Shown one piece after another: positions 308 to 45,154 of a stretch of 45,154 nucleotides of DNA. The position numbers and the translations under genes were made by a program. How positions within the stretch are numbered: the stretch's first letter is position 1; every line of letters starts with the position of its first letter. The stretch is from a virus. The notes beneath the pieces are model-generated. The model saw nothing but the letters and a program-made list of their open reading frames with translations. It was not told the DNA's origin and made no database searches. The stretch is taken from IMG/VR virus record IMGVR_UViG_3300045988_160052; one strand, 5' to 3'.

Positions 308-3300
308 ATGATACCCATTCGGCAATTTGACACACTTTTACAAACACAATCCTTAAACAATAAACTTTTTCAAACATTGGTGCAAGGCTCTGAGGATACC
401 GCCATTAAAGCGACAATTCAGCAAGATGGCAAAAACATTCAAATTGAAACTGGGGCGGATATAGAATTGTCTATTCTTTACAACGGCGGAACAACCCAGA
501 CCTACCACACCGACCAAGCAAAATCAGACTTTCCGGCAACCATAGAAAGCGATGGCACGCTCATTATTAAATTTAACGAGATGATGACCACTGTTTTTGG
601 CACGCACAAGCTATTTTTGAAGATTGTGGATACAAACACCTCATACGCTCTTGCCATGGATTATACGGTCATTAAAAACGAAGCCTACAATCCGCAAGCA
701 ACCCCAAACAACCTGCCGGCATATAATTCCCTTGTGGCCGAACTCCCCAAAAAGCTAAACAAGGATTTTTCAAACGCTGATGATGTGGCATTAAAAAACA
801 AACTTTCCACTTTGGGAATTGGTGCCGATGAAACACCGGAGCAAATCAGAGATAAGCTCCAAACCCTCAAAGCCGATGACAGATTGGATAGCTCAGCGGT
901 CAAGGATTGTTTAACAACTGACCTTGCAGACGTTGACCTTGACAAGTTGGATGAGAAGTTTCAAGCAACCGACAGCGGAAAGATTTTGCAACAAAACTCT
1001 CAAGCAATTGGCACAAAGGCAAATGCTGATTTGAGCAATGTTTCTAATGAAGATTTGGACAGTCTTCTTGTTCAGACCGACATGGGCAAGCAAATTTTAG
1101 ACAACACAAAGCAAGTGCAAACAAAACTTGATACGGACATGGGCAACGTCAATACTCTTTTATTCTCCCGTGAGATGAAATTGACTGGAGCATATCAAGA
1201 CCTTGCAAACAGACCAAGCGGACAAGGCAGAACAGCAGAGCAAATCAAAGCCTTGTTTGAAGCTAATCGCTTTGAAGAACAAGCAGCGGTTGATTTTTCC
1301 GACCCTCAATTCTCATCCACAACCCTATATATGGCTTATCAATTTACAACAAACAACCAAACAATAACGCAAGAATTGCCATCTGTTGCAGACGGTCAAA
1401 TCATTATGGTTGAAGCCTTGCTATCTTCTGGCATTACAAACCCCACTTTGACATTTACAGCCAAAGCAGGCGACAATATTCAAGGCTCAAGCACACCTTT
1501 CTCTATTTCCGGTAAAAGTGGCTATCTTGGTTATTTTATCCCCTTGCAAAACGAAAACGCTTGGCAATTTATACCTCATGAAATTAGCCACGAGTTTAGC
1601 CTTGCGGTATCTGATGATAAGGGCAATGTGCATATCGGTATTAACTCGGTACAGTTCAAAAAAGCAACCGTAACGGAAAACGGCGGAATATTAGAGGTTG
1701 AGCCGGACGCTCAAACCGGCGGCACATCAAACACAACCTTTACCGATTTTGAGGGGCGGACTTTTACAAGCAACAAAATCCAATCTTTAGACAAGTCCTT
1801 GCGAATATCTAACCTTTCAGGCGTTGCGGACTTGTCAAAAGGGCTTACAGACCATAACGAGGGTATTCACGCCGTATTAGGCAGCGACCAGCTTATAAAC
1901 TCAAAATTCGGGCGTTCTAAACTTTACTTTGGTGATATTCGGGTAAAGGGCGGAAGTTCTGTTTATGAAGACAAAGACACAAAGTCTTACGTTGTGCAAG
2001 ATACAGACCCACAGGACGACCCAAACATAAGCGGCGGCACGACCTTTATTTGCGGGCTTTATTATGAGCCGACTACAACAACTCAAAACACCGTAACGCA
2101 AGACGGCGCAATAAGGCTTGAATTGGTGGACGATACCGACACGCCGATAACCGGCAATGACGGCAACCCGATAGCGGTTCAAATTGACTACAAAGCAGGC
2201 GACACAATCAAGCCGGAATTTTATGTCGGCGAGTTTCAAGCAAAAGCCTTTACAAGAGTTCACCTCAAAATTGAGCCGGTTTTTGCAAATGAAGAAGTTA
2301 TCCCCGTTGGCGCAAATACTCAAATTTGCTTGCAATCCATAACCAAAGATGAAAGTTCGGGACTTGCACTGCTTTCCTTTATGGCGTTTACAGGCTACAA
2401 AATCGGGTTTGACACGCTTTATTATGGTTTTAATTCCTTAAACTTGGCGAGGTTTTTAGTCTTTGACCAACCACAAGAAACCGTAAGCGGAGAAATGCCG
2501 CTTGGCGATAATACCTTTATAAATTTTGCCACAAATTCAGAGGTGCAAGTATCCGGCTATAATCTTATTATTGAAAATACAGGTCTAGAATTGCCGGTTT
2601 GGAATATTTACAAGGTTTACAGCGAGTACGATTGCCAAAACATAGGCGGTAAAAATGCACTTGTAACCGTAACTTTAACCGACAAGGACAACGCCTTTGA
2701 TGTTTCCTTGCTTGAATATACTGGAACGCAACCGGCACCGCAACCTAAATTGTTGTCATATAATAACACAGTGCCGGTATTTGCGGCAGGTTGGAGCGTG
2801 ATTGACACGATGTTTATTTCCGAAGATGTCGTATCAGGCGAGCATAAGCAATCTAAAACTTTCACTTTGCCAACAAATGCAAAAGGGCTTGCAATTAGCT
2901 TATACCCTAACAATTCGCAAAGCCCGACAACCTTAAAATTAAAAGACTTTGAGGCGGATATAACACCTTGGTTTAACCGAGTGATGATAACCGACAATTC
3001 GCATATCAGCGAGCAGTATTTGCGCAACCTTGATTATGTTTATCGGAGTATTGTTGCCGTACCTGCCGGATATGCAAGCTATCGCTACACCGTAAACAGC
3101 GCAAAAACAAAACTGCCGGTTGGGGTGTTCAGCGGCGGCGATAACAAAATTGTCAACGATAACTCATGGACGGACGCCGGAAGTACCGACCCAAACAAAA
3201 CGCAAGGCGATATTAAGTTCTTGGCTGACGGCATTGTAACAATAAACTATCAGGCGCAATGCTATAATGAGCAAGGAACGATTAACAACGTTGAGTTTTG

Positions 3301-3679
3301 GCTTGAAAAAGTGTCGGACAGCTCAGAAGTGGCAGGCTCGCACTATGCGACCACGATTGAGGCACAACGGACAACACCAAAGAATATCACAAGCCCGAAG
3401 TTTACATTTAGCGTAAAGGCAAATGAAACCTACCGATTTTATGGAAAATCAAACAAAGATGACGGCTTTTATTTGCAGACTTCAACCGTTGCAAACCCCC
3501 TTATTCGTTTTGATTATGAATTTGAGGAATTGTCGGAAGTTATAAAATTGGCGTTAGATGATGCCTTTTCAAAAACCAATGAGATAAAGTTTGTCAAAGC
3601 GGACGGAGAGGAAGTAACAAACAAAATCCTTGTCTATAACGTAGATGACGGGAAATTCAAACTTGAGGACAACGCATAA
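308..3679 (+). CDS. Giant tail fibre / receptor-binding protein (1123 aa)
   Basis: Longest ORF. GGGGG RBS upstream. In the circular map it lies just downstream of the fibre/assembly genes. The N-terminal part has about 4 copies of a K-x-D-[FLM]-[SAG]-[ND]-V fibre-like repeat. The rest is T/N/G/S-rich, consistent with beta structure. Confidence 0.6.
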   Translation: MIPIRQFDTLLQTQSLNNKLFQTLVQGSEDTAIKATIQQDGKNIQIETGADIELSILYNGGTTQTYHTDQAKSDFPATIESDGTLIIKFNEMMTTVFGTHKLFLKIVDTNTSYALAMDYTVIKNEAYNPQATPNNLPAYNSLVAELPKKLNKDFSNADDVALKNKLSTLGIGADETPEQIRDKLQTLKADDRLDSSAVKDCLTTDLADVDLDKLDEKFQATDSGKILQQNSQAIGTKANADLSNVSNEDLDSLLVQTDMGKQILDNTKQVQTKLDTDMGNVNTLLFSREMKLTGAYQDLANRPSGQGRTAEQIKALFEANRFEEQAAVDFSDPQFSSTTLYMAYQFTTNNQTITQELPSVADGQIIMVEALLSSGITNPTLTFTAKAGDNIQGSSTPFSISGKSGYLGYFIPLQNENAWQFIPHEISHEFSLAVSDDKGNVHIGINSVQFKKATVTENGGILEVEPDAQTGGTSNTTFTDFEGRTFTSNKIQSLDKSLRISNLSGVADLSKGLTDHNEGIHAVLGSDQLINSKFGRSKLYFGDIRVKGGSSVYEDKDTKSYVVQDTDPQDDPNISGGTTFICGLYYEPTTTTQNTVTQDGAIRLELVDDTDTPITGNDGNPIAVQIDYKAGDTIKPEFYVGEFQAKAFTRVHLKIEPVFANEEVIPVGANTQICLQSITKDESSGLALLSFMAFTGYKIGFDTLYYGFNSLNLARFLVFDQPQETVSGEMPLGDNTFINFATNSEVQVSGYNLIIENTGLELPVWNIYKVYSEYDCQNIGGKNALVTVTLTDKDNAFDVSLLEYTGTQPAPQPKLLSYNNTVPVFAAGWSVIDTMFISEDVVSGEHKQSKTFTLPTNAKGLAISLYPNNSQSPTTLKLKDFEADITPWFNRVMITDNSHISEQYLRNLDYVYRSIVAVPAGYASYRYTVNSAKTKLPVGVFSGGDNKIVNDNSWTDAGSTDPNKTQGDIKFLADGIVTINYQAQCYNEQGTINNVEFWLEKVSDSSEVAGSHYATTIEAQRTTPKNITSPKFTFSVKANETYRFYGKSNKDDGFYLQTSTVANPLIRFDYEFEELSEVIKLALDDAFSKTNEIKFVKADGEEVTNKILVYNVDDGKFKLEDNA

Positions 3680-4006: not shown

Positions 4007-4600
4007 ATGGTAAAAAATATTTATACAGATTATGAATTTAATGGCGGAAAAATCTCCGGCATTGCCGATGGTGTAAATGCATCTGATGCCGTAAATAAAA
4101 GCCAGCTCGATGCACAAGACACCGCCTTGCGTGCCTATATTGATGCCGAGATTTTAGGCTTGGGTGCATTTGTTGACGAGTTAGACCCCTCTCTTGGTTT
4201 GCCAACGGCAGGCTCAGGTGCGGCAGGTGCAATTGACGGCGGCGACTGGTGGTATATTTCTGCAGAGGGAACATTGCTTGGTATCCCTGTTCACAAAGGC
4301 GACCGCTTGCAGGCAATGGTTGACAACCCGGACACGGCAGACAACACCGCAGCCAATACAGATTGGAAAGTTTTGCACAGCTATCACGAAGCAGACAGCC
4401 GCTTTTCAATTGACAACTTGGCATTGGTAGCCAACACACCGTCAACTGTAAACCATGGACTTGGATATAAGTTTGTTCACGTTTCTGTGGCAGATGCAAC
4501 AGGCGATGCCGTTGATGTTCAAGTCAACTACGTTGATGAAAACAATCTCACTTTGACAGCAAACACATCCGTTACTGTAAGTGGTGTTGTTTCTATCTAA
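4007..4600 (+). CDS. Short tail-fibre-like structural protein (197 aa)
   Basis: AGGAGA RBS. The N-terminal motif GIADGVNASDAVNKSQLD is typical of fibre/baseplate-attachment N-termini. The C-terminus is beta-rich. Confidence 0.55.
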   Translation: MVKNIYTDYEFNGGKISGIADGVNASDAVNKSQLDAQDTALRAYIDAEILGLGAFVDELDPSLGLPTAGSGAAGAIDGGDWWYISAEGTLLGIPVHKGDRLQAMVDNPDTADNTAANTDWKVLHSYHEADSRFSIDNLALVANTPSTVNHGLGYKFVHVSVADATGDAVDVQVNYVDENNLTLTANTSVTVSGVVSI

Positions 4601-4611
4601 GGAGAAAAGCA

Positions 4612-5976
4612 ATGGGAGCAAAAATTAACTGGCATGTAGAAAAAAGAAAAATCTCGGATCTCATCCCCCACAAAGACAATCCGAGAATTTTCACCGAAAA
4701 GGGCATGAAAGATTTGGATAAGTCAATCAACAAGATTGGCATGGCCCAACCAATCAATATCACCCCGGACGGTATTATTCTCTCCGGTCATGCCAGAATT
4801 GAAGCTCTCAAAGGTCAGGGAGTGGCAGAGGTTGACTGCTATGTCCCTGACCGCTCCCTTTCCGAGAAAGAACAAAAAGAAGTCCTTGTCCGGATGAATG
4901 CCAACATTGCCGGAATTTGGGATAATGACAAGTTATCCACAATTTTTAATTTTGATGATTTGGCAGACTGGGGCATGGACAACCTCTCCGAAATTTTTGG
5001 AGAAATACCGGAGCCTGAAATTGAAGAAGACAACTTTGTTGAGCCGGAGCCGGAAGAAGTAGAAGAAATAAAAACCGACATCGAGCAAGGCGATTTGTTT
5101 ATTCTTGGCGAGCATCGCATTCTTTGCGGCGATAGCACCAACCAAAAAGACGTGGCCATGCTTATGGGCGGAGATGACATAAAAGCCGACATGGTGCATA
5201 CAGATCCACCATATGGAGTAAGCTATAAAGGAACCAATAACCCAAACGGCAAAGAATGGGAAATCATCAAAAACGATAAGCTTCGGGGTGATACGCTATT
5301 TTTATTTTTGCTTGAAGCGAGTAAAAACATTAAACGCTTTCTAAAGCCTGATGGTGCGTTTTATATGTGGTATGCCAACAGCAACCACATGCAATTTGAA
5401 AACGCAATCAGAGGGGCGGAATTAAAGCCTAAGCAAGTCATAATCTGGGATAAAGGGATGGTGCTTGGTCATAGCGATTATCACTGGGCATACGAGCCTT
5501 GCTTTTATGGATGCCATGAGGGGAAAAACTGCAAATGGTGTGGAGATAGATCTCAACAGACATTCTGGGCATTTAATCGCAAAGAACTAACCGAGATGAA
5601 AAAGGATGAAATTCTAAGCCTTTTGAAAAATCTTCAAGAGGGCCGCACTTGTTGGCGAATTAAGCGAGATAGTGCAATGGAATACATCCACCCCACGCAA
5701 AAGCCTATAGCTTTGTCGGCAAAGGCAATAAAGAACAGCTCTCAACCCGGTGATGTTGTATTGGATTTATTTGGTGGATCCGGATCAACCATGATGGCTT
5801 GCGAACAAATGCACAGAAAAGCCAGATTGATGGAACTTGATCCGAAATATGTTCATGTTGAAATATGCCGTTGGGTAAAATATACCGGCAAAGATGTATA
5901 TCGCATCAGATCCGGAAAAAAGGAAATTTACAAAATTTTTGAACAAGAAATTGATAATTTGGCCGTGAAAGATTAG
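4612..5976 (+). CDS. ParB-like N-terminal domain fused to an N6-adenine/N4-cytosine DNA methyltransferase
   Basis: ParB-N-like segment (HKDNPRIF...ILSGHARIEAL). Acidic linker. MTase motifs TDPPYG, HPTQKP and LDLFGGSGST in beta-class order. Confidence 0.85.
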   Translation: MGAKINWHVEKRKISDLIPHKDNPRIFTEKGMKDLDKSINKIGMAQPINITPDGIILSGHARIEALKGQGVAEVDCYVPDRSLSEKEQKEVLVRMNANIAGIWDNDKLSTIFNFDDLADWGMDNLSEIFGEIPEPEIEEDNFVEPEPEEVEEIKTDIEQGDLFILGEHRILCGDSTNQKDVAMLMGGDDIKADMVHTDPPYGVSYKGTNNPNGKEWEIIKNDKLRGDTLFLFLLEASKNIKRFLKPDGAFYMWYANSNHMQFENAIRGAELKPKQVIIWDKGMVLGHSDYHWAYEPCFYGCHEGKNCKWCGDRSQQTFWAFNRKELTEMKKDEILSLLKNLQEGRTCWRIKRDSAMEYIHPTQKPIALSAKAIKNSSQPGDVVLDLFGGSGSTMMACEQMHRKARLMELDPKYVHVEICRWVKYTGKDVYRIRSGKKEIYKIFEQEIDNLAVKD

Positions 5977-14008: not shown

Positions 14009-15373
14009 ATGAAAATAAGATTATTGGAACTTTGTGCCGGATATGGGAGCCAAGCGTTGGCTTTGAAAAATTTAGGCATAGACGTTTATTCAGAGATTGC
14101 CGAGTTTGATAAATATGCAAGCCAAGCATATATGCAGCTGCATGGAGAAACAAAGAACTACGGCGATATTTACAAAATTGATGAAACAAAGCTCCCATAT
14201 TTTGACATGATAACATATTCAACGCCATGCCAAGATTTTTCCGTTGCCGGAAAAGGAAAAGGCGGAGATAAGGGTAGCGGAACACGTTCAAGCCTTTTGT
14301 GGGAGTGCGAACGAATTATAAGAGCTGTTAAGCCTAAATATTTATTAATGGAAAACGTAAAAAATCTTTTGAGTAAAAAACATTGCCATAATTTTAATGC
14401 ATGGATAAAAGTGCTTGAGAATATGGGATATACAAACTATTACAAGGTTCTTAATGCCAAAGACTACGGCATACCGCAGAACCGGGAGCGTATATTTTGC
14501 GTGTCAATCCTTGGCGGTGGCCAATATTTATTTCCAAACCCGATACCGCTTGAAAAACGTTTAAAAGACATGCTTGAGCCAACCGTTGCAGAAAAATTTT
14601 ATTTAAGCTTAAAGCAAATAGCTAAATTTATAAAAAGTTGTTTTCATCAGGAGAGAGATAGATTACAAGAAAAAGATTATTGCGACACTATTTTAAGTAG
14701 AGATTACAAAGATCCAAAATTAGTAAAAGAGCCTATTTGTGCAGCAAGCAGAGGTAGGGGAGATGTAAAAACAGAGCAGCATCTTGAGATAAACTATTCA
14801 GGTTGCACAAATACGCTTACAAGCGTTCAAAAGGATAATTATGTGGTTGAGCCTAAAGTTATTCAGGTTGGCAATATTGTAGATAGTGGAAATTGGGATA
14901 ATCCGCAAAGAGGTAGAGTTTATAGTTCCGATGGTTGTAGTCCTGCTCTTAATACTTGTCAAGGCGGTGGATTAGAACCAAAAATTATAGAAGAGAAACC
15001 CATACTTGTAGGCGGTGTGGGAGAAATTAACTTTGGCAAGCAATACAGACAAGGAAACAGAATATACGATTCAAATGGAATAGCTATGTGCTTAACATCT
15101 CAACCTGTGGGAAATGCGGGCGGTAATAGTTATTTATATAAAATTGAAGAAAATAATATAATTAATTATTGCATCCGCAAGCTAACCCCAAGGGAATGTT
15201 GGCGTTTGATGGGTGTAAAAGACGAACAGTTTGACCGCTTGCACGATTTATCAAACTCGCAACTTTATAAACTTGCCGGGAATAGCATTGTGGTTGACGT
15301 GTTGGAACACATATTCAGAAACTTGCTAATGCCGGAAACAACAGAAACCAAAGGTCAATTAAATTTATTTTAA
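14009..15373 (+). CDS. C5-cytosine DNA methyltransferase with an unusually long variable region (possibly multispecific)
   Basis: Motifs I LELCAGYGS, IV TPCQDFSVAGK, VI ENVKNL, VIII QNRERIF, IX RKLTPRECWRLMG, X GNSIVV. About 215 aa separate VIII and IX. Confidence 0.9.
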   Translation: MKIRLLELCAGYGSQALALKNLGIDVYSEIAEFDKYASQAYMQLHGETKNYGDIYKIDETKLPYFDMITYSTPCQDFSVAGKGKGGDKGSGTRSSLLWECERIIRAVKPKYLLMENVKNLLSKKHCHNFNAWIKVLENMGYTNYYKVLNAKDYGIPQNRERIFCVSILGGGQYLFPNPIPLEKRLKDMLEPTVAEKFYLSLKQIAKFIKSCFHQERDRLQEKDYCDTILSRDYKDPKLVKEPICAASRGRGDVKTEQHLEINYSGCTNTLTSVQKDNYVVEPKVIQVGNIVDSGNWDNPQRGRVYSSDGCSPALNTCQGGGLEPKIIEEKPILVGGVGEINFGKQYRQGNRIYDSNGIAMCLTSQPVGNAGGNSYLYKIEENNIINYCIRKLTPRECWRLMGVKDEQFDRLHDLSNSQLYKLAGNSIVVDVLEHIFRNLLMPETTETKGQLNLF

Positions 15374-15994: not shown

Positions 15995-16198
15995 ATGAGA
16001 GGAAAACTCGCAAAAACATTGCATGCGGTGGCCCGTCTTAGAACAGTTGGGATGCCAGATGTTGAATATAACCTTACCAAAAGGCATTTAATCAAAGTTC
16101 CGGAATTTGAAAAACCTATAATGTGCGGAACGATTGTTCTTAGTGAAAACTGCACAAGAGCCGTTTATAAAAACCTAAAAAAGGGATCTAAAAAATGA
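15995..16198 (+). CDS. Small hypothetical protein (67 aa)
   Basis: AAGGAG RBS 6 nt upstream of ATG 15995. Confidence 0.5.
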   Translation: MRGKLAKTLHAVARLRTVGMPDVEYNLTKRHLIKVPEFEKPIMCGTIVLSENCTRAVYKNLKKGSKK

Positions 16199-16581
16199 AA
16201 TCAAAAATAAATTGCACCAGAGAGCAAGCAGAAGAATTGGCTCAAAAGTTTGGAATATCTCAAGAAACAGTTGATGAATTTGAGTACAAGCCAGAACCGA
16301 AACAAACATCACTTATAACTAAAGAAGACGATGAAAGAAATAATATTGTTGGCGGTATTGATGTAAACCGCTTGCGGTCCATTATTGAACGCATTGAACG
16401 TCTTGAAGAAGAAAAGAAAGGCATTTCATCAGATATTCGTGATATTTATGCAGAAGCCAAAGGAGTGGGATTTGATACCAAAATTATTCGTGAAATTATT
16501 AAACTCCGAAAAATGAATACGGCCGACCGTGATGAACAAGAATTTTTAATTGAAACATACCGGAAAGCATTAAACATTTAG
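16195..16581 (+). CDS. GapR-like (DUF2312) DNA-binding protein with N-terminal extension
   Basis: LRSIIERIERLEEEKKGISSDIRDIYAEAKGVGFDTKIIREIIKLRKM closely follows the GapR/DUF2312 core as I recall it. Confidence 0.75.
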   Translation: MKSKINCTREQAEELAQKFGISQETVDEFEYKPEPKQTSLITKEDDERNNIVGGIDVNRLRSIIERIERLEEEKKGISSDIRDIYAEAKGVGFDTKIIREIIKLRKMNTADRDEQEFLIETYRKALNI

Positions 16582-16583
16582 TC

Positions 16584-16656
16584 GTGTGGCGGTTCCAGAG
16601 GATGAAAGGCGGCATCCTATAACGGTATAATCGGAAACGTAAAAGCTGTGCCACAC
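16584..16656 (+). other. Structured intergenic element: three nested helices (candidate leader RNA or protein-binding inverted repeats)
   Basis: P1 is GTGTGGC (16584..16590) with GCCACAC (16650..16656). P2 is GTTCC with GGAA(A)C. P3 is GGATG with CATCC. The P3 loop AAGGCGG is complementary to CCGCCTT at 16697..16703. Confidence 0.3.
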
Positions 16657-16732
16657 ACATAAACCTCATGTATTTCATAGCAGCTTAATTATACCACCGC
16701 CTTAAAATTATTTATAAATAGGGGGAATTTTT

Positions 16733-17089
16733 ATGAAGAAAATATGTTCAAGATGTAAGAGGGAGTTGCCGTTATCTTTATTTGGAAAACTTAAAACAAG
16801 CAAAGATGGCTTGCAGTATACCTGTAAAGAATGTCTAAATAAACATAATAAAGATTATCGGTCTAAGAATAAAGCCAAATGGATTGAATACAACAGAAAA
16901 TCAAAAGAAAAAACAAAAACACTTGAATACCATTCTTTATGCGATGCTATTGGTGGATATAACCTATTTATTCTGAACCACACAAAGCAAGGAGAATTTA
17001 AGTATAATATGGTTAATACGGCAACCGGGGAAATTTTTAATACCAACAACAAAGAAGATTTTATTGAACGAATAAAAAGGATAAACTAA
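16733..17089 (+). CDS. Zinc-ribbon protein (CxxC...CxxC), unknown function
   Basis: CSRCKRELPLSLFGKLKTSKDGLQYTCKEC, followed by a K-rich helix. AGGGGGA RBS. Confidence 0.55.
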   Translation: MKKICSRCKRELPLSLFGKLKTSKDGLQYTCKECLNKHNKDYRSKNKAKWIEYNRKSKEKTKTLEYHSLCDAIGGYNLFILNHTKQGEFKYNMVNTATGEIFNTNNKEDFIERIKRIN

Positions 17090-17289
17090 TGCAAAACGAA
17101 AAAGGAAAAGAAATCTACGAAATTAGAAAAACGCTAAGGATGGGCCGTCCGGCATTTGCCGAGGTTTGTTTGAAGCGTAGCGAGCAATCTGTCATTAAAT
17201 ATGAAAATGGCGAAGTTAATCCACCTGAAAAGGTTATGAAACGTGCCAGAAAATGGATGAATTTGTATAACGAAATTCATAGGGATTAG
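17089..17289 (+). CDS. XRE-type helix-turn-helix regulator (66 aa)
   Basis: IYEIRKTLRMGRPAFAEVCLKRSEQSVIKYENGEVNPP fits the XRE HTH pattern. Its start overlaps the upstream stop (TAATG). Confidence 0.6.
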   Translation: MQNEKGKEIYEIRKTLRMGRPAFAEVCLKRSEQSVIKYENGEVNPPEKVMKRARKWMNLYNEIHRD

Positions 17290-17296
17290 AATTAAT

Positions 17297-18043
17297 ATGG
17301 AACTTATAAATGACCACTTCCAAAACCGAAAACAGTACAATATACCAAAGGCTCAATTGGTAATTGCCGATATTCCATATAACATTGGCAAAAATGCATA
17401 CGGGAGCAATCCTAAATGGTATATTGACGGCGACAGTTCAAAAGGAGAAAGCAAACTAGCCGGAAAAGAATTTTTTGATACGGATAAAAACTTCCGTATT
17501 CCGGAGTTCTTTCATTTTTGTTCAAAGATGGTAAAGCCAGAGCCAAAAGAAACCAACAAAGCCGGATGCATGATTGTTTTTTGTGCTTTTGAGCAACAAT
17601 TCGATTTGATTGAAGAAGCCAAGAAACACGGATTTAAAAACTACATTCCGTTGACATTTTACAAAAACTATTCGGCCCAAGTTTTGAAAGCAAACATGAG
17701 AATTGTAGGAAATACCGAATATGCCTTGCTTTTCTATCGTGATAAATTGCCAAAGTTTAATAACAACGGCCGCATGATATTTAATACAATGCCGATGGAC
17801 AGAGATACGGAAACACCACGCATTCACCCAACACAAAAGCCTTTATCGCTTTTGAAGTACCTTATTGAGATATTCACAGACCGGGGCGATGTTGTCATAG
17901 ATCCATGTGCCGGAAGCGGATCCACCTTGCTTGCCGCCGAGCAATTAGGCCGCAAGGCGTACGGATTTGAGATTAAAAAAGAATTCTGCAGAGAATTTGA
18001 AAAAAAGTTGAATAGAGAAGTTGAAATTGAATTATCTTTTTAA
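17297..18043 (+). CDS. N6-adenine/N4-cytosine DNA methyltransferase (beta class)
   Basis: ADIPYN (a DPPY variant), HPTQKP and IDPCAGSGST. Confidence 0.8.
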   Translation: MELINDHFQNRKQYNIPKAQLVIADIPYNIGKNAYGSNPKWYIDGDSSKGESKLAGKEFFDTDKNFRIPEFFHFCSKMVKPEPKETNKAGCMIVFCAFEQQFDLIEEAKKHGFKNYIPLTFYKNYSAQVLKANMRIVGNTEYALLFYRDKLPKFNNNGRMIFNTMPMDRDTETPRIHPTQKPLSLLKYLIEIFTDRGDVVIDPCAGSGSTLLAAEQLGRKAYGFEIKKEFCREFEKKLNREVEIELSF

Positions 18044-18058
18044 AAAAGGGGAATAAAT

Positions 18059-19132
18059 ATGAGAACGAGCGAATATGTATCAATTGGACATCCGGATAAA
18101 ATTGCGGACCTTATAAGCGAGTACATTCTTGACCGCATTCTTGAGCAAGATCCAAATGCCAGATATGCATTGGAAGTGCAGATAAAAGACAACCATGTAA
18201 CCCTTGGCGGGGAAATCACCACAAAAGCCGATATTTCTGCCGAAAAATGGGTAAAAGAAGCCGTTGAGGAAATCGGTTATACAAAGAAATATTCCGAAAA
18301 ATGGGGTAAGGAAAATACAATTTGCTCGGATGATTTGGAAGTCCGTAGCCTTATATCAGCACAAAGCTTGGATATTGCTCAGGGCGTAGATATTGACGGA
18401 TGGGGCGATCAAGGCATATTCTTTGGATATGCGGAAAACAACCCAGATACGAATTATATGCCGTTGGATTATTTCCTTGCCAAAGATTTGAACAATCTGT
18501 TATATTCAAAAGCCAAAAAAGGCATTGGCGGATTGGATATTAAAACACAAATCACACTTGATGATGAAGATATGGTTGATGAAATCATCGTTGCTATTCC
18601 GGTAAAAGATGGCCGTGAATTAGCTAAAATCAGAGATATTGTAGATAAATGGGCAGGAAAGCAGAACATCACACCTACAACAGTAACCGTAATTAACGGC
18701 ACCGGAAAATACATCAAGCATTCATCAATGGGAGATTGCGGAACCACCGGCCGAAAGCTTGCGGTAGACTTCTATGGCGGAAACTCCCCCATCGGGGGCG
18801 GATGCCCATGGACAAAGGACGGAACCAAGGCAGACCTTGCCCTTAATGTTATTTCCAGATTTTTGGCGTTAAATGAATTAAAAGTATCTACGCATCCTTA
18901 TAAACACATTTGCGAAACAAAAATAAGCTGCTGCATCGGAAAGTCAGATATTATTTATTCATACGCCATAAAAGATAAATACGGCCAGATTTTGGAAAAA
19001 AACACCGAAAGAGCATATGCATCACCCAGAGAAGTGATTGAACAGTTCGAATTGAGAAATCCTAAATTTGCTTCTCTTTGCAAAAAGGGTTTATTTGGTG
19101 TTCCGGACACAGAGCATATTTGGGAGTTATAG
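18059..19132 (+). CDS. metK: S-adenosylmethionine synthetase, shortened phage form (357 aa)
   Basis: GHPDKIADLIS, GDQGIFFGYA, LDIKTQIT and GDCGTTGRKLAVDFYGG match MetK signatures. The C-terminal motif diverges (GGGCPWTKDGTKAD). Confidence 0.85.
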   Translation: MRTSEYVSIGHPDKIADLISEYILDRILEQDPNARYALEVQIKDNHVTLGGEITTKADISAEKWVKEAVEEIGYTKKYSEKWGKENTICSDDLEVRSLISAQSLDIAQGVDIDGWGDQGIFFGYAENNPDTNYMPLDYFLAKDLNNLLYSKAKKGIGGLDIKTQITLDDEDMVDEIIVAIPVKDGRELAKIRDIVDKWAGKQNITPTTVTVINGTGKYIKHSSMGDCGTTGRKLAVDFYGGNSPIGGGCPWTKDGTKADLALNVISRFLALNELKVSTHPYKHICETKISCCIGKSDIIYSYAIKDKYGQILEKNTERAYASPREVIEQFELRNPKFASLCKKGLFGVPDTEHIWEL

Positions 19133-19135
19133 AAA

Positions 19136-19351
19136 ATGCCTTTTGTAGAAGTCAAAAACGATAATGGATCCACAACCTATAGATGGGTAAAGGATATTGA
19201 CAAATACAATGAACAGAACTATCAAAATGAACAGCAAGGGGATTTGACAACCGGAACAGCTTCCCTTGTTGCTCTTGATATATCAAAGGAAAAATATAAC
19301 CAAATTTTTAAGAGGGGGGAAAACAATGTTAGAGAAAGAGGAAAATGTTAA
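19136..19351 (+). CDS. Small hypothetical protein (71 aa)
   Basis: Starts 4 nt after the metK stop. Overlaps the next gene's start. Confidence 0.45.
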   Translation: MPFVEVKNDNGSTTYRWVKDIDKYNEQNYQNEQQGDLTTGTASLVALDISKEKYNQIFKRGENNVRERGKC

Positions 19352-19805
19352 TCCTGATAAATATGCACTTGAAGAACCTTTGATTTTTAAGTCAATTATT
19401 TGTGACATCATAAAAAACAAGGAAATACTTGAACAGCTTAATGATGTTAAAAGCAAATACATTGAGGAAATATCTAAGATTTGCAATGCCGATAAAGAAG
19501 ATTTTAATGACATCTCCAACATTTATGTATTGGCACAAGATATTTATAACAACATCATCGGATTTATTGCGGTAGGATTAAACCCGGCGGTTCGGGAAGT
19601 GTGGGCGTGCCACGTCTACACCCTGCCGGAATATCGGAAAAAGGGCGTATATCGGGATATGATGGAAAGATTAAAGTTATTTACATCACAAATTGGGTTT
19701 AAAAGAATTGTCGTTGGCGTTTATAAAGTCAATAAACCGAGCAAAAGAACTCACTTAAAACTAGGTTTTAAACCCATTATTGACATCATGCATCTTGATT
19801 TATAG
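19326..19805 (+). CDS. GNAT-family acetyltransferase-like protein
   Basis: VYTLPEYRKKGVYRDMMERL resembles GNAT motif A. GGGGGGA RBS before the internal ATG 19326. Confidence 0.5.
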   Translation: MLEKEENVNPDKYALEEPLIFKSIICDIIKNKEILEQLNDVKSKYIEEISKICNADKEDFNDISNIYVLAQDIYNNIIGFIAVGLNPAVREVWACHVYTLPEYRKKGVYRDMMERLKLFTSQIGFKRIVVGVYKVNKPSKRTHLKLGFKPIIDIMHLDL

Positions 19806-19848: not shown

Positions 19849-20328
19849 ATGCCAAGAGGGAATAAACAAACATTAAAAGTCTACACCTCGGAAGAAGCTC
19901 GCTTTTATGGATCCATGGGCGGAAAAGCTTCAGCCGATGCACGAAGACGGAAAAAAAGCCTAAAAGAACTCACGCAAGCCTTGCTTGAGATGAAACCGCA
20001 TGAAAAGATAGCAGAAAGGTCAAAAATGCTTTTTCCTGGCGTTGATCCGGAAGATTTAACAAATGGCATGATTTTGGCCATGGCAATGTTTGATAAGGCG
20101 ATAAAAGACCAAGATGTCAAAGCGGCTCAGTTTGTGAGGGATACGGCCGGAGAGGTGCCGGAGCAGATAATCAACGGAAATCTTGGACAATCTACCGTCT
20201 TTGTGACCGAGCAAGACCAAAACAAAATCATCAAGCATATTCAAGAAGTATTAAATGATGGCCAACCAAAAACAGAAAAAACAACCAAAAAAGCAAGCAA
20301 GCCCAAAAAAGGAACGAAAAAGAAGTAA
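19849..20328 (+). CDS. Putative terminase small subunit
   Basis: The basic N-terminus MPRGNKQ...GSMGGKASADARRRKK is typical of small-terminase/DNA-binding N-termini. It lies directly upstream of and overlaps the large terminase. Confidence 0.5.
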   Translation: MPRGNKQTLKVYTSEEARFYGSMGGKASADARRRKKSLKELTQALLEMKPHEKIAERSKMLFPGVDPEDLTNGMILAMAMFDKAIKDQDVKAAQFVRDTAGEVPEQIINGNLGQSTVFVTEQDQNKIIKHIQEVLNDGQPKTEKTTKKASKPKKGTKKK

Positions 20329-21796
20329 TACATCGGAAGATATAAACCGAGAATACCTTGGCAAGACCTTGCTTGATGCCGGCTTTGAGGTTTGGTTCCG
20401 ATACATGTTCCGAGTTCTTGAGGGTAAGCCCTTTATAATGGACCGTATCCACAAGGATATGTTCAACGTTTTTGATGACCTTTATTATTTGCGAATAACT
20501 CGTGAATGCATGAACATTCCGCCACGAGCCGGAAAAACCACCATCTGCAAATATTGGCTTATTTATTGCCTAACCAAAAACCCACGGTGTAATTTTATTT
20601 ATACATCATTCTCCCAAATGCTCCTATCCGACATTGCCAGAGAAGTGGCTCAAATTTTAGAGCATCCGATTTACAAAGAACTCTACGGAAACGGATTAAT
20701 CGGTATGGAAGAAAAGGAAGAAAACCCGATTGATGACTTTTGGCGAGAATATCTCTTGCAAGAAACAGGTAAAGCGGTATATGCAAGTAAACGCATCATC
20801 ACCGCAAAAGGCGGACAAATTCTATTTGCATCTATCGGATCCACCATCACCGGATTTGGTGCCGGCATAAGAGGGGCGAAAGGTTTCTCCGGAGCCTTAA
20901 TCATAGACGATGCGAACAAGCCGGCCGATATCATGTCCGAAACCATGAGGGATAAAGTCCGCAAATACTATGACGAAACCTTGCTGTCACGTTTAAACGA
21001 CAGTAACGTGCCAATATTTAACATTCAGCAAAGGCTCCACCTTGGCGATTTATCCGGATATTTGCTTGAACAATACAAATTTGACAGCATCATAAAGCCG
21101 TTGCTTGAACCGGACGGAACATGCAACATTGAAAGCCAATACACCCCTGAGCGTATTAAAGAAATCTCATTTAATGACACCATGTTTCAAGCACAATATC
21201 AGCAATCACCGGTGGCAGAAAAAGGAAACATTATTCAGCGTGATTGGTGGGTATATTACGATGCTGACATTACAACAATAGATGGAAAACTTATAATAAC
21301 GGCCGACACAGCATACAAGAAAACCAAAACCGCCGACTATTCATGCTTCCAAGTTTGGGAGCTGTTACGCAAAGAGATGCGTTTGCGTGATATGATTGTA
21401 GGTAAATGGGAATTCCCCGAACTTTTGGAGAAAGCAAGCCAAATATGGCGGAAGTGGACAGATAACAGTTTAATTAATCCGGCCGCATTTATGTACATTG
21501 AAGACAAAGCATCAGGCATTAGCTTGGAGCAAACGCTTATTCAATCCGGCATCAATGCCATTTGTTGGAAGCCAAAAGAATATGACTACCCAGAGGATAA
21601 AGTCGGCAGAACGAGAGAGCTCTCATGGGATGTATACCGTGGTCTTGTAAAATTAAAAAAAGATGATAAAATGAGCCAGTATCTAGTTAATGAGGCGGCA
21701 TTGTTTGCTGAAGATATGTCGCACGCTCATGACGACAGCGTTGATAGTGCATCAATGGCCCATTCTATTTGGAGATATGCCGGGGGCGGACAATAA
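20255..21796 (+). CDS. terL: Terminase large subunit
   Basis: Walker A-like PPRAGKTT and Walker B-like ALIIDDANK. C-terminal nuclease-like acidic motifs (ITADTAYK, IEDKASG, HDDSVDS). The start is uncertain: it overlaps the previous gene by 74 nt and has a weak RBS. Confidence 0.8.
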   Translation: MMANQKQKKQPKKQASPKKERKRSNTSEDINREYLGKTLLDAGFEVWFRYMFRVLEGKPFIMDRIHKDMFNVFDDLYYLRITRECMNIPPRAGKTTICKYWLIYCLTKNPRCNFIYTSFSQMLLSDIAREVAQILEHPIYKELYGNGLIGMEEKEENPIDDFWREYLLQETGKAVYASKRIITAKGGQILFASIGSTITGFGAGIRGAKGFSGALIIDDANKPADIMSETMRDKVRKYYDETLLSRLNDSNVPIFNIQQRLHLGDLSGYLLEQYKFDSIIKPLLEPDGTCNIESQYTPERIKEISFNDTMFQAQYQQSPVAEKGNIIQRDWWVYYDADITTIDGKLIITADTAYKKTKTADYSCFQVWELLRKEMRLRDMIVGKWEFPELLEKASQIWRKWTDNSLINPAAFMYIEDKASGISLEQTLIQSGINAICWKPKEYDYPEDKVGRTRELSWDVYRGLVKLKKDDKMSQYLVNEAALFAEDMSHAHDDSVDSASMAHSIWRYAGGGQ

Positions 21797-44897: not shown

Positions 44898-45154
44898 ATG
44901 AGTGAAATAACGCAGAAGTATAAAGGTGGGGCAAGGAAAATAACGATAAAAAGTGATTATCCAAACGTTAAACTTTCTGTAAAACTTCCTCGTTCATCAA
45001 CAATCAGGATCAAGAGAGATGAATCCAGAAAACAGGGCGATAAAAATTCACATCAAAGAAATGGCTCCAATAGTCGCAATCAAAAAGATAAACGATTACA
45101 AAATTCCGACACCTTACAAGGAGATATTAATTGCACTTGTGAACCGAAAAGAGG
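44898..45154 (+). CDS. Alternative junction-spanning ORF (frame 0; would end at 167 after circularisation), low-complexity. Doubtful beyond its first ~40 codons.
   Basis: ATG 44898 has no SD. The product is K/R/S/N-rich. It overlaps the more protein-like frame that starts at 45019. Confidence 0.25.
   Translation, partial: MSEITQKYKGGARKITIKSDYPNVKLSVKLPRSSTIRIKRDESRKQGDKNSHQRNGSNSRNQKDKRLQNSDTLQGDINCTCEPKR
45019..45154 (+). CDS. 5' part of the junction-spanning small ORF (continues at 56..180 of the window start)
   Basis: ATG 45019 is preceded by GAGAG. MNPENRAIKIHIKEMAPIVAIKKINDYKIPTPYKEIL... continues in frame through the terminal repeat. Confidence 0.5.
   Translation, partial: MNPENRAIKIHIKEMAPIVAIKKINDYKIPTPYKEILIALVNRKE
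45100..45154. repeat. Second copy of the 55-bp terminal repeat
   Basis: Identical to 1..55. Confidence 0.95.

Follow-up and report, generated by a model that had tools for sequence, protein, structure and literature searches.

The phage genome analysed here (IMG/VR virus record IMGVR_UViG_3300045988_160052; 45,154 nucleotides, called the window as a whole) encodes a methionine adenosyltransferase (MAT, or MetK) in a compact block of genes just upstream of its terminase genes. The open reading frame (ORF) at 18059-19132 is a complete three-domain MAT under purifying selection, and its product is probably active as a synthetase of S-adenosylmethionine (SAM), which is formed from methionine and ATP. 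Among the genes of the block, only the pairing of MetK with a DNA methyltransferase (MTase) recurs across lineages, and it does so strongly. A functional tie between MetK and phage DNA MTases is plausible and is backed by comparative genomics. The phage MAT may keep SAM available, outside host feedback, for orphan MTases during replication and packaging, a reading to which we give a probability of roughly 0.55.

The identity of MetK was established by domain, family, structure and residue comparisons. The MAT N, M and C domains of Pfam (PF00438, PF02772 and PF02773) were matched at 5e-26, 1e-10 and 1e-14, all above the gathering scores, and together span residues 2-356. The protein matches phrog_1569 end to end (1.5e-83), and its best match among solved MATs is C. 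jejuni 4le5 (6e-46). An AlphaFold (AF2) model built from 35 homologues (pLDDT 86, pTM 0.87) retrieved MAT structures in Foldseek at TM 0.75-0.82. Alignment with E. coli MetK showed that every residue with a known role in binding methionine, ATP, Mg2+ or K+ is kept. The conserved positions are H14, D16, K17, E42, E55, Q98, D118, D163, K165, D238, R244, K245, K265, K269 and D271, and these 15 catalytic or ligand residues are invariant among 35 members of the clade. The MetK identity proposed in a first-pass annotation of this DNA is borne out by the three domains, and the active-site alignment that it had suggested as a check found every canonical catalytic residue in place.

The same annotation had described the gene as truncated. 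MetK is indeed 27 residues shorter than the E. coli enzyme, through scattered small deletions, five residues of the gating loop among them, and because a C-terminal tail of 14 residues is missing; the N domain has one 7-residue insert. Alignment to MetK profiles and structures nevertheless covers residues 2-356, and a truncated or degenerate MetK was ruled out by the end-to-end alignments, the catalytic residues, a clade-wide motif and the ratio of nonsynonymous to synonymous substitution rates (dN/dS), which is about 0.20 against relatives that are 76-78% identical. That motif lies in the triphosphate loop, which reads GGGCPWTKD (GGGCPWTKDGTKAD) in the window enzyme and GGGAFSGKD in its canonical form. 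The motif had been noted as altered, and it does differ, but not by degeneration, since it is conserved throughout the clade. The consensus GGGSPWTKDG(T/S)KAD is invariant or nearly so in the 35 members, as are GWGDQG and CCIG, and the two lysines and the aspartate of the loop are retained. These signature motifs (GWGDQG, GGG(S/C)PWTKD and CCIG) differ from all solved MATs. MetK scores 189.5 bits against TIGR01034, the NCBIfam metK equivalog, which is below the cutoff of 309.4, and it therefore belongs to a divergent clade whose name rests on domains and residues, not on the equivalog rule. Compared with cellular MetK (E. coli MetK, C. jejuni 4le5 and U. urealyticum 6rk7), the window enzyme has the same three-domain fold, catalytic residues and predicted reaction. 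It differs in the gating-loop deletion, the N-domain insert, the altered triphosphate loop and the missing C-terminal tail, and its gene carries no riboswitch or host regulatory signals.

Thousands of metagenomic homologues belong to this clade, together with 180 IMG/VR contigs and 430 stretches in bacterial genomes, the latter from many gut and rumen phyla. On the 1.2-Mb chromosome of Ca. Deianiraea vastatrix (L131; loci of the clade are cited by number), the clade gene lies amid housekeeping genes, with no phage genes nearby. This setting implies that the member is a working SAM synthetase and suggests that the clade can serve as a cell's ordinary SAM synthetase. A cellular housekeeping setting was also seen in Alphaproteobacteria, in the gut metagenome-assembled genome loci L091 and L152-L165 and in Rickettsiales-like members. 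The presence of the phage-type clade (GG[SC]PWTKD) in a cellular setting raises the question of the direction of gene transfer between phages and bacteria. At five IMG/VR loci (L013, L014, L051, L054 and L060), a simple ORF caller did not return the tblastn match to MetK as one standard-code ORF; frameshifts, stop-codon recoding or an artefact of the caller are possible causes.

The association with MTases was quantified in a viral census, for which 80 IMG/VR loci were fetched; 75 were usable, and these were dereplicated to 40 at 90% MetK identity. Pfam families were counted over three genes on each side of MetK. N6_N4_Mtase was the top family among these neighbours (12 upstream and 12 downstream ORFs), and ParB_N came second upstream (10 ORFs), from ParB-MTase fusions. 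By a local profile, an N6/N4 MTase lies within 1 kb of MetK in 32/40 viral loci and directly adjacent to it (<=50 nt, same strand) in 27/40. When the flanks were extended to 6 kb on either side, 28 of the 35 MTase ORFs found there lay <=200 nt from MetK on the same strand; 30 of these 35 local-profile calls are confirmed by Pfam. The bacterial-genome census, which covers 80 loci, showed an MTase adjacent to MetK in 42, and in 0/11 of the Alphaproteobacteria/Rickettsiales loci where the gene looks cellular. These 11 cellular loci are a natural negative control for adjacency. L006 and a Victivallis prophage again show the order ParB-MTase, MetK, terminase. An independent MetK clade gives a parallel case: the MetK of Streptococcus phage Javan405, which has the canonical GGGAFSGKD and is 50% identical to E. 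coli MetK, adjoins an MTase cluster ahead of terS. Some lineages also carry NMN_transporter (7 ORFs) or HARE-HTH (6 ORFs) genes within three genes downstream of MetK, which are further cofactor-related or DNA-binding cargo beside the MAT.

The MTase next to MetK in the window is of the beta class. Its PF01555 match (2e-30) spans residues 20-235, and motif IV (DIPY, near residue 25) precedes motif I (DPCAGSGST, near residue 202), so that motif order and profile agree with the class read earlier from the motifs. Like orphan phage DNA MTases of this type (beta-class N6/N4, often fused to ParB_N), it is a typical PF01555 member with no cognate nuclease and occupies the usual pre-packaging position upstream of the terminase. 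Unlike many MetK-adjacent MTases, it has no ParB_N domain. It differs further from the orphan enzymes in that its presence varies within one phage species, as a cassette on a 734-bp indel (17295-18028) with a GAATTA direct repeat at its junctions. This segment is missing from two relatives (L003 and L004) whose flanks on either side of it match the window at 98.6-98.8% identity, and their 66-aa ORF is followed directly by MetK, with no MTase between. In a third (L008, 98% identical), 34 aa of this MTase are deleted in frame. Because MetK is retained where the cassette MTase has been lost, it does not depend on that MTase in particular, and two other MTases remain in the genome. The retention of MetK thus weakens a strict dependence on its neighbour, not on those two. 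The three DNA MTases that the first-pass annotation had listed are all supported by profiles: the N6_N4 enzyme of the block (17297), a C5 enzyme (14009) and a ParB_N-like N6_N4 enzyme (4612), the last two being the second and third consumers of SAM.

These observations can be joined into a mechanism. The phage MetK, if active, would be transcribed from the promoter in the leader of the block, together with the genes just before the packaging module. Its synthesis of SAM from the methionine and ATP of the host would be free of host feedback control, since the phage metK has no SAM riboswitch and stands outside the host met regulon. SAM would thereby be sustained for three orphan phage DNA MTases while many genome copies replicate and are packaged. 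Progeny DNA would then be fully methylated and would escape restriction in the next host. As the evidence is comparative, we infer the catalytic activity, the co-transcription, the limiting role of SAM and restriction evasion as the benefit. An earlier proposal of SAM supply for methylation is retained here in its coupling of MetK to MTases, which comparative genomics supports, and is set aside in its other part, a six-gene anti-restriction operon.

Several points weigh against this mechanism. About a third of the viral loci have no adjacent N6/N4 MTase, and the closest relatives of the window keep MetK with the adjacent MTase deleted or absent. The equivalog score lies below its cutoff, and the triphosphate-loop motif and the gating loop differ from those of characterised MATs. 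SAM limitation of phage DNA methylation is itself an inferred step. [quoted passage not shown] Finally, in the only experimental work on a prophage metK, the phenotypes reported concern aggregation of the host and biofilm, and not anti-restriction (PMC8223999).

The last point leads to another explanation, by which metK is a generic auxiliary metabolic or lysogenic-conversion gene that supplies SAM for host physiology (polyamines, the autoinducer AI-2 and many methylations) and raises host fitness or burst size. The proximity of MTases would then reflect a shared accessory hot-spot upstream of the terminase, not functional coupling. In S. agalactiae, a prophage metK has effects on aggregation, on the glycocalyx and on biofilm (PMC8223999), and virome surveys file the gene under 'cysteine and methionine metabolism'. 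A hot-spot does exist, as the region between the GapR-like gene and the terminase has three independent insertion points, but the observed adjacency is far tighter than a hot-spot predicts, with four-fifths of the MTase ORFs (28/35) crowded against MetK in very different phages, and no other cargo family approaches the N6/N4 MTases in frequency. MetK also persists where the neighbouring MTase is lost, as this explanation would have it; yet it is co-directional within the lytic gene train, and no terminator or separate moron-like promoter was detected. Taken together, a generic role is possible but rather unlikely.

A more elaborate version of the methylation-supply mechanism was also considered, and it is doubtful. 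It would make the GGG(S/C)PWTKD clade phage-adapted, either feedback-insensitive or kinetically specialised, and part of a two-gene methylation booster with N6/N4 MTases, placed in a genus hot-spot under an Aca-like helix-turn-helix (HTH) autorepressor acting on a covarying palindrome. The shortened gating loop and altered triphosphate loop may then cause the specialisation, and the MTases, ParB-fused or stand-alone, may hold the pre-packaging position.

A counter-defence role was also considered, in which the divergent MAT would restore SAM after depletion or after inhibition of host MetK, whether by the host or by the SAM lyase of a competing phage, while being insensitive to the inhibitor itself. 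The SAM pool is a proven arena of phage-host conflict: the SAM lyase of T3 both cleaves SAM and, through heteropolymer formation, inhibits MetK (PMC8406200; bioRxiv 10.1101/2023.02.27.530186). PDB 8bb1, which belongs to the T3 SAM lyase/MetK context, is among the Foldseek matches of the MetK model, and the clade is strongly diverged from cellular MetK in surface and loop regions with its active site kept. This role is nonetheless improbable, as the literature searched yielded no host defence that depletes SAM, the locus points to no specific defence, and MTase adjacency is explained no better than by simple supply. T3 SAM lyase resembles the window MetK as a phage gene acting on the host SAM pool in methylation-based immunity. 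Its logic is the opposite, since it destroys SAM and blocks MetK against Type I R-M and BREX, whereas the window phage would make SAM, and the two proteins have no sequence or fold relationship.

The weakest alternative is a MAT homologue of altered function, making a SAM analogue for a non-canonical DNA modification, possibly with the GNAT of the block, or binding host MetK without catalysis. It ascribes a different substrate or product to the triphosphate loop (GGGSPWTKD) and the shortened gating loop, and it could draw on signature motifs that are clade-invariant and unlike all solved MATs, on the sub-cutoff equivalog score, and on the joint retention of MetK, ORF71 and the GNAT gene in the genus under purifying selection; it is very improbable given that all known methionine-, ATP- and metal-binding residues are conserved, that the clade appears as an ordinary cellular metK in Rickettsiales-like and other Alphaproteobacteria, and that a GNAT accompanies MetK in only 3/40 viral loci.

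The block and its surroundings are listed in Table 1. All six block ORFs predicted in the first pass are present on the + strand at the positions given there and are tightly packed: a 1-nt overlap is followed by gaps of 7, 15 and 3 nt and then a 26-nt overlap, and an intergenic gap of 151 nt precedes the six. The GapR-like gene bounds the block upstream and the terminase genes bound it downstream. Since no + strand terminator lies between the block and the terminase genes, the transcription unit probably runs on into the packaging module.

Table 1. Genes and other features of the window in and around the metK block, with the two further DNA MTase genes.
Feature	Position	Strand	Basis or remark
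GapR-like DNA-binding protein, upstream boundary	16195..16581	+	PF10073 at 1.2e-32; kept in L003, L005, L009, L010
Conserved intergenic leader, probable promoter/operator	16582..16732	+	Promoter-like boxes, palindrome, inverted repeat
118-aa protein with N-terminal CxxC...CxxC zinc ribbon, variable cargo	16733..17089	+	Partial PHROG matches
66-aa probable HTH (XRE/MqsA-type) DNA-binding protein (HTH66)	17089..17289	+	Sub-threshold profile matches
Beta-class N6/N4 DNA methyltransferase, 248 aa	17297..18043	+	PF01555 at 2e-30, phrog_67 at 8e-49
Three-domain methionine adenosyltransferase (MAT/MetK), 357 aa	18059..19132	+	Pfam, PHROG, PDB, fold
ORF71, 71 aa, without family assignment	19136..19351	+	Kept with MetK and GNAT in the phage genus only
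GNAT acetyltransferase, 159 aa	19326..19805	+	PF00583 at 1.1e-9
Probable small terminase subunit, 159 aa	19849..20328	+	phrog_2412 at 1.5e-13; directly before TerL; same gene call in L003
Large terminase subunit (TerL), start of packaging module, portal gene next	20255..21796	+	phrog_38 at 1.9e-79
C5 cytosine DNA methyltransferase	14009..15373	+	PF00145 at 5e-69, TIGR00675 at 2e-63
ParB_N-like N6/N4 DNA methyltransferase	4612..5976	+	PF01555 at 1.3e-27; ParB_N weak, 4e-3

Conservation of the other block genes was followed in relatives and in the 160 clade loci that were searched for them. The relatives L005, L009 and L010 (76-78% identical) keep the GapR gene, the leader, the HTH gene, MetK, the small ORF, the GNAT gene and the terminase; L009 has a different 138-aa ORF inserted ahead of the leader. 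The zinc-ribbon ORF is absent from these three genomes and is present in only 1/160 clade loci. Its similarity to known families is limited to residues 1-61, which align with parts of PHROGs whose annotations are endonuclease VII, HNH or Lar-like (6e-14 to 7e-9); Pfam, NCBIfam and PDB gave no match. HTH66 is conserved directly upstream of MetK within the phage genus, with homologues that are 70-73% identical in L005, L009 and L010. It matches the HTH region of NCBIfam TIGR03830 at 7.4e-6, which is below cutoff, and Pfam MqsA at 0.048. Its single-sequence AF2 model (pLDDT 78, pTM 0.54) gave only chance-level Foldseek matches. The earlier label 'XRE HTH' is therefore supported by sub-threshold matches to the MqsA HTH domain and not by a fold match of the single-sequence model. 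HTH66 is a candidate regulator of the leader operator.

ORF71 has no family match in Pfam, PHROG or NCBIfam; homologues in L009 and L010 are 56-64% identical, and its dN/dS against L005 is about 0.1. The GNAT gene, recognised in the first pass as closing the block before the terminase, is confirmed by PF00583 (1.1e-9), and its true start is set at ATG 19326, which has a strong Shine-Dalgarno (SD) sequence (GAGGGGGG) and agrees with gene calls in relatives. NCBIfam and PDB matches to it are weak and generic. Across the clade, GNATs account for 3/115 downstream neighbour ORFs in the dereplicated IMG/VR loci. The 26-nt overlap of ORF71 and the GNAT gene is a feature shared with toxin-antitoxin pairs of the TacAT/AtaRT type, but such a pair found no support, as ORF71 matches no DUF1778 or ribbon-helix-helix family and the GNAT matches only generic acetyltransferase models.

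HTH66, ORF71 and the GNAT were found only in the phage genus of the window, and outside this genus the MTase alone recurs with MetK. A conserved six-gene system was therefore rejected. The 'six-gene anti-restriction operon' does not hold together as a unit, since the MTase is strain-variable, the zinc-ribbon ORF is absent in relatives at 78% identity and the other three genes are limited to the genus. No known anti-restriction family was matched by the four small genes, save for the partial PHROG match of the zinc-ribbon ORF described above. These four (zinc-ribbon, HTH66, ORF71 and GNAT) are lineage-specific passengers or regulators, and the MTase and the zinc-ribbon ORF are variable passengers. 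The region from the GapR gene to the terminase has taken up cargo at no fewer than three insertion points and is thus a hot-spot.

A likeness to anti-CRISPR (acr) and anti-CRISPR-associated (aca) operons had been suggested for the head of the block. The shared features are a variable small gene (the zinc-ribbon ORF), a conserved small gene for a probable HTH protein and a palindrome in the upstream promoter region. In the window, by contrast, many further genes follow the HTH gene in a long train, and no defence target is implied. No known Acr or Aca family was matched in Pfam, PHROG, NCBIfam or PDB, which include no Acr/Aca-specific library. The architecture and the palindrome are present, and the likeness is architectural only.

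The leader carries a -35-like element at 16602-16607 and a -10-like TATAAT at 16626-16631. A palindrome, AGGATG (16599-16604)-N8-CATCCT (16613-16618), lies across the -35-like element, and GGTATAAT (16624-16631) and ATTATACC (16688-16695) form a perfect 8-bp inverted repeat, the first arm of which holds the -10-like box. A leader block of about 45 nt, TATAAT included, is near-invariant in relatives that show 70-78% identity in the flanking genes. Their -35 is better (TTGGAT or TTGGGT, with an 18-nt spacer), and their palindrome is AGGTTG-N8-CAACCT, so that both half-sites change together. The leader had been described as structured. Its minimum free energy is not significantly different from that of shuffled sequences (z = -1.04), and it has no Rfam match at gathering score or at E<=10, so that the description is not upheld. 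The covariation term among four sequences is -0.19 kcal/mol, with one compensatory pair. A SAM riboswitch or structured RNA leader was rejected on the basis of the missing Rfam match, the non-significant folding energy and the near-absence of covariation. Most economically, the leader is read as a probable promoter and operator, to which the conserved HTH protein may bind, and the palindrome and the 8-bp inverted repeat are candidate operators for this 66-aa protein.

The window has an exact 55-bp direct terminal repeat (1-55 = 45100-45154) and is therefore a complete phage genome, circularly closed or permuted, with about 45.1 kb of unique sequence. Essentially all of its genes are on the + strand, and it has no tRNA genes. 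An SD-like core lies 4-20 nt upstream of 45/52 long genes, against a background of 17%. A bacterium that uses SD sequences and has about 40% GC, possibly one of the Clostridia, is the probable host; because SD usage is strong, Bacteroidota are unlikely. A megablast search against GenBank phages gave no match, and the best match among prophage relatives in bacterial genomes is 55% identical, which is too distant for a host call. At the left end of the window, a 1123-aa ORF (308-3679) without a Pfam match is followed by a 105-aa ORF and then by a 197-aa ORF (4007-4600) with a YadA-stalk-like coiled-coil match. The 1123-aa and 197-aa ORFs probably encode tail fibres or adhesins, and the ParB-type MTase gene follows just downstream.

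Inteins were seen in relatives of the window. The C5 DNA methyltransferase of L003 (1879-4056) has 725 aa and an Intein_splicing domain, compared with 454 aa in the window. TerL of L005 (4521-7316; 931 aa) is intein-interrupted, with Hint_2 and Intein_splicing matches, and the ORF of more than 1,100 aa that corresponds to TerL in L009 (8192-11560) is probably interrupted as well. The window lacks the inteins carried by these relatives.

The genome had been called CCGG-rich. This holds against dinucleotide shuffles (246 sites, with 88 +/- 9 expected) and not under a second-order Markov (trinucleotide) expectation, where observed/expected is 1.06. Several other 4-bp palindromes are strongly avoided by the second-order Markov ratio, namely CGCG (0.05), GCGC (0.19), TCGA (0.31), GATC (0.36), GGCC (0.47) and GTAC (0.52). 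This pattern fits restriction avoidance except at CCGG, a site which the phage may self-protect, with the C5 MTase at 14009-15373 perhaps responsible.

As an auxiliary gene, phage metK has been well documented before, and the present locus is an ordinary example of its class. Among the auxiliary genes of gut phages, metK ranks second in abundance, after dcm (PMC12180181). In Ca. Heliusvirales genomes, K00789 occurs in 58.9% and a C5 MTase in 67% (PMC11283538). Among GenBank phages, 134 records carry the gene, and Streptococcus prophages make up most of them. These phage and prophage forms (K00789, PHROG 1569) belong to the same enzyme family as the window MetK, as compact tailed-phage proteins of about 330-365 aa, and like the window they often come from genomes that also encode DNA MTases. 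The Streptococcus prophage enzymes have the canonical GGGAFSGKD, whereas the window MetK, only 32-34% identical to them, belongs to a divergent sub-clade. Matches to 'phage metK' in H. pylori were discarded as host metK flanking prophage insertion sites. The literature search found no published biochemical, methylation-role or counter-defence test of phage MetK, and the phage metK literature found does not state the MetK-MTase adjacency as quantified here.

Phage metK is usually filed under 'methionine metabolism'. The tight adjacency to MTases across phage lineages, and its absence where the gene is cellular, argue that the main job of the phage enzyme is to fuel self-methylation of phage DNA. 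Metagenomes hold natural near-isogenic variants in which the neighbouring MTase is intact, internally deleted or absent. If true, the methylation-supply role would be the mirror image of the SAM-destroying strategy of T3, and phage host range would depend on donor supply as well as on methyltransferase specificity.

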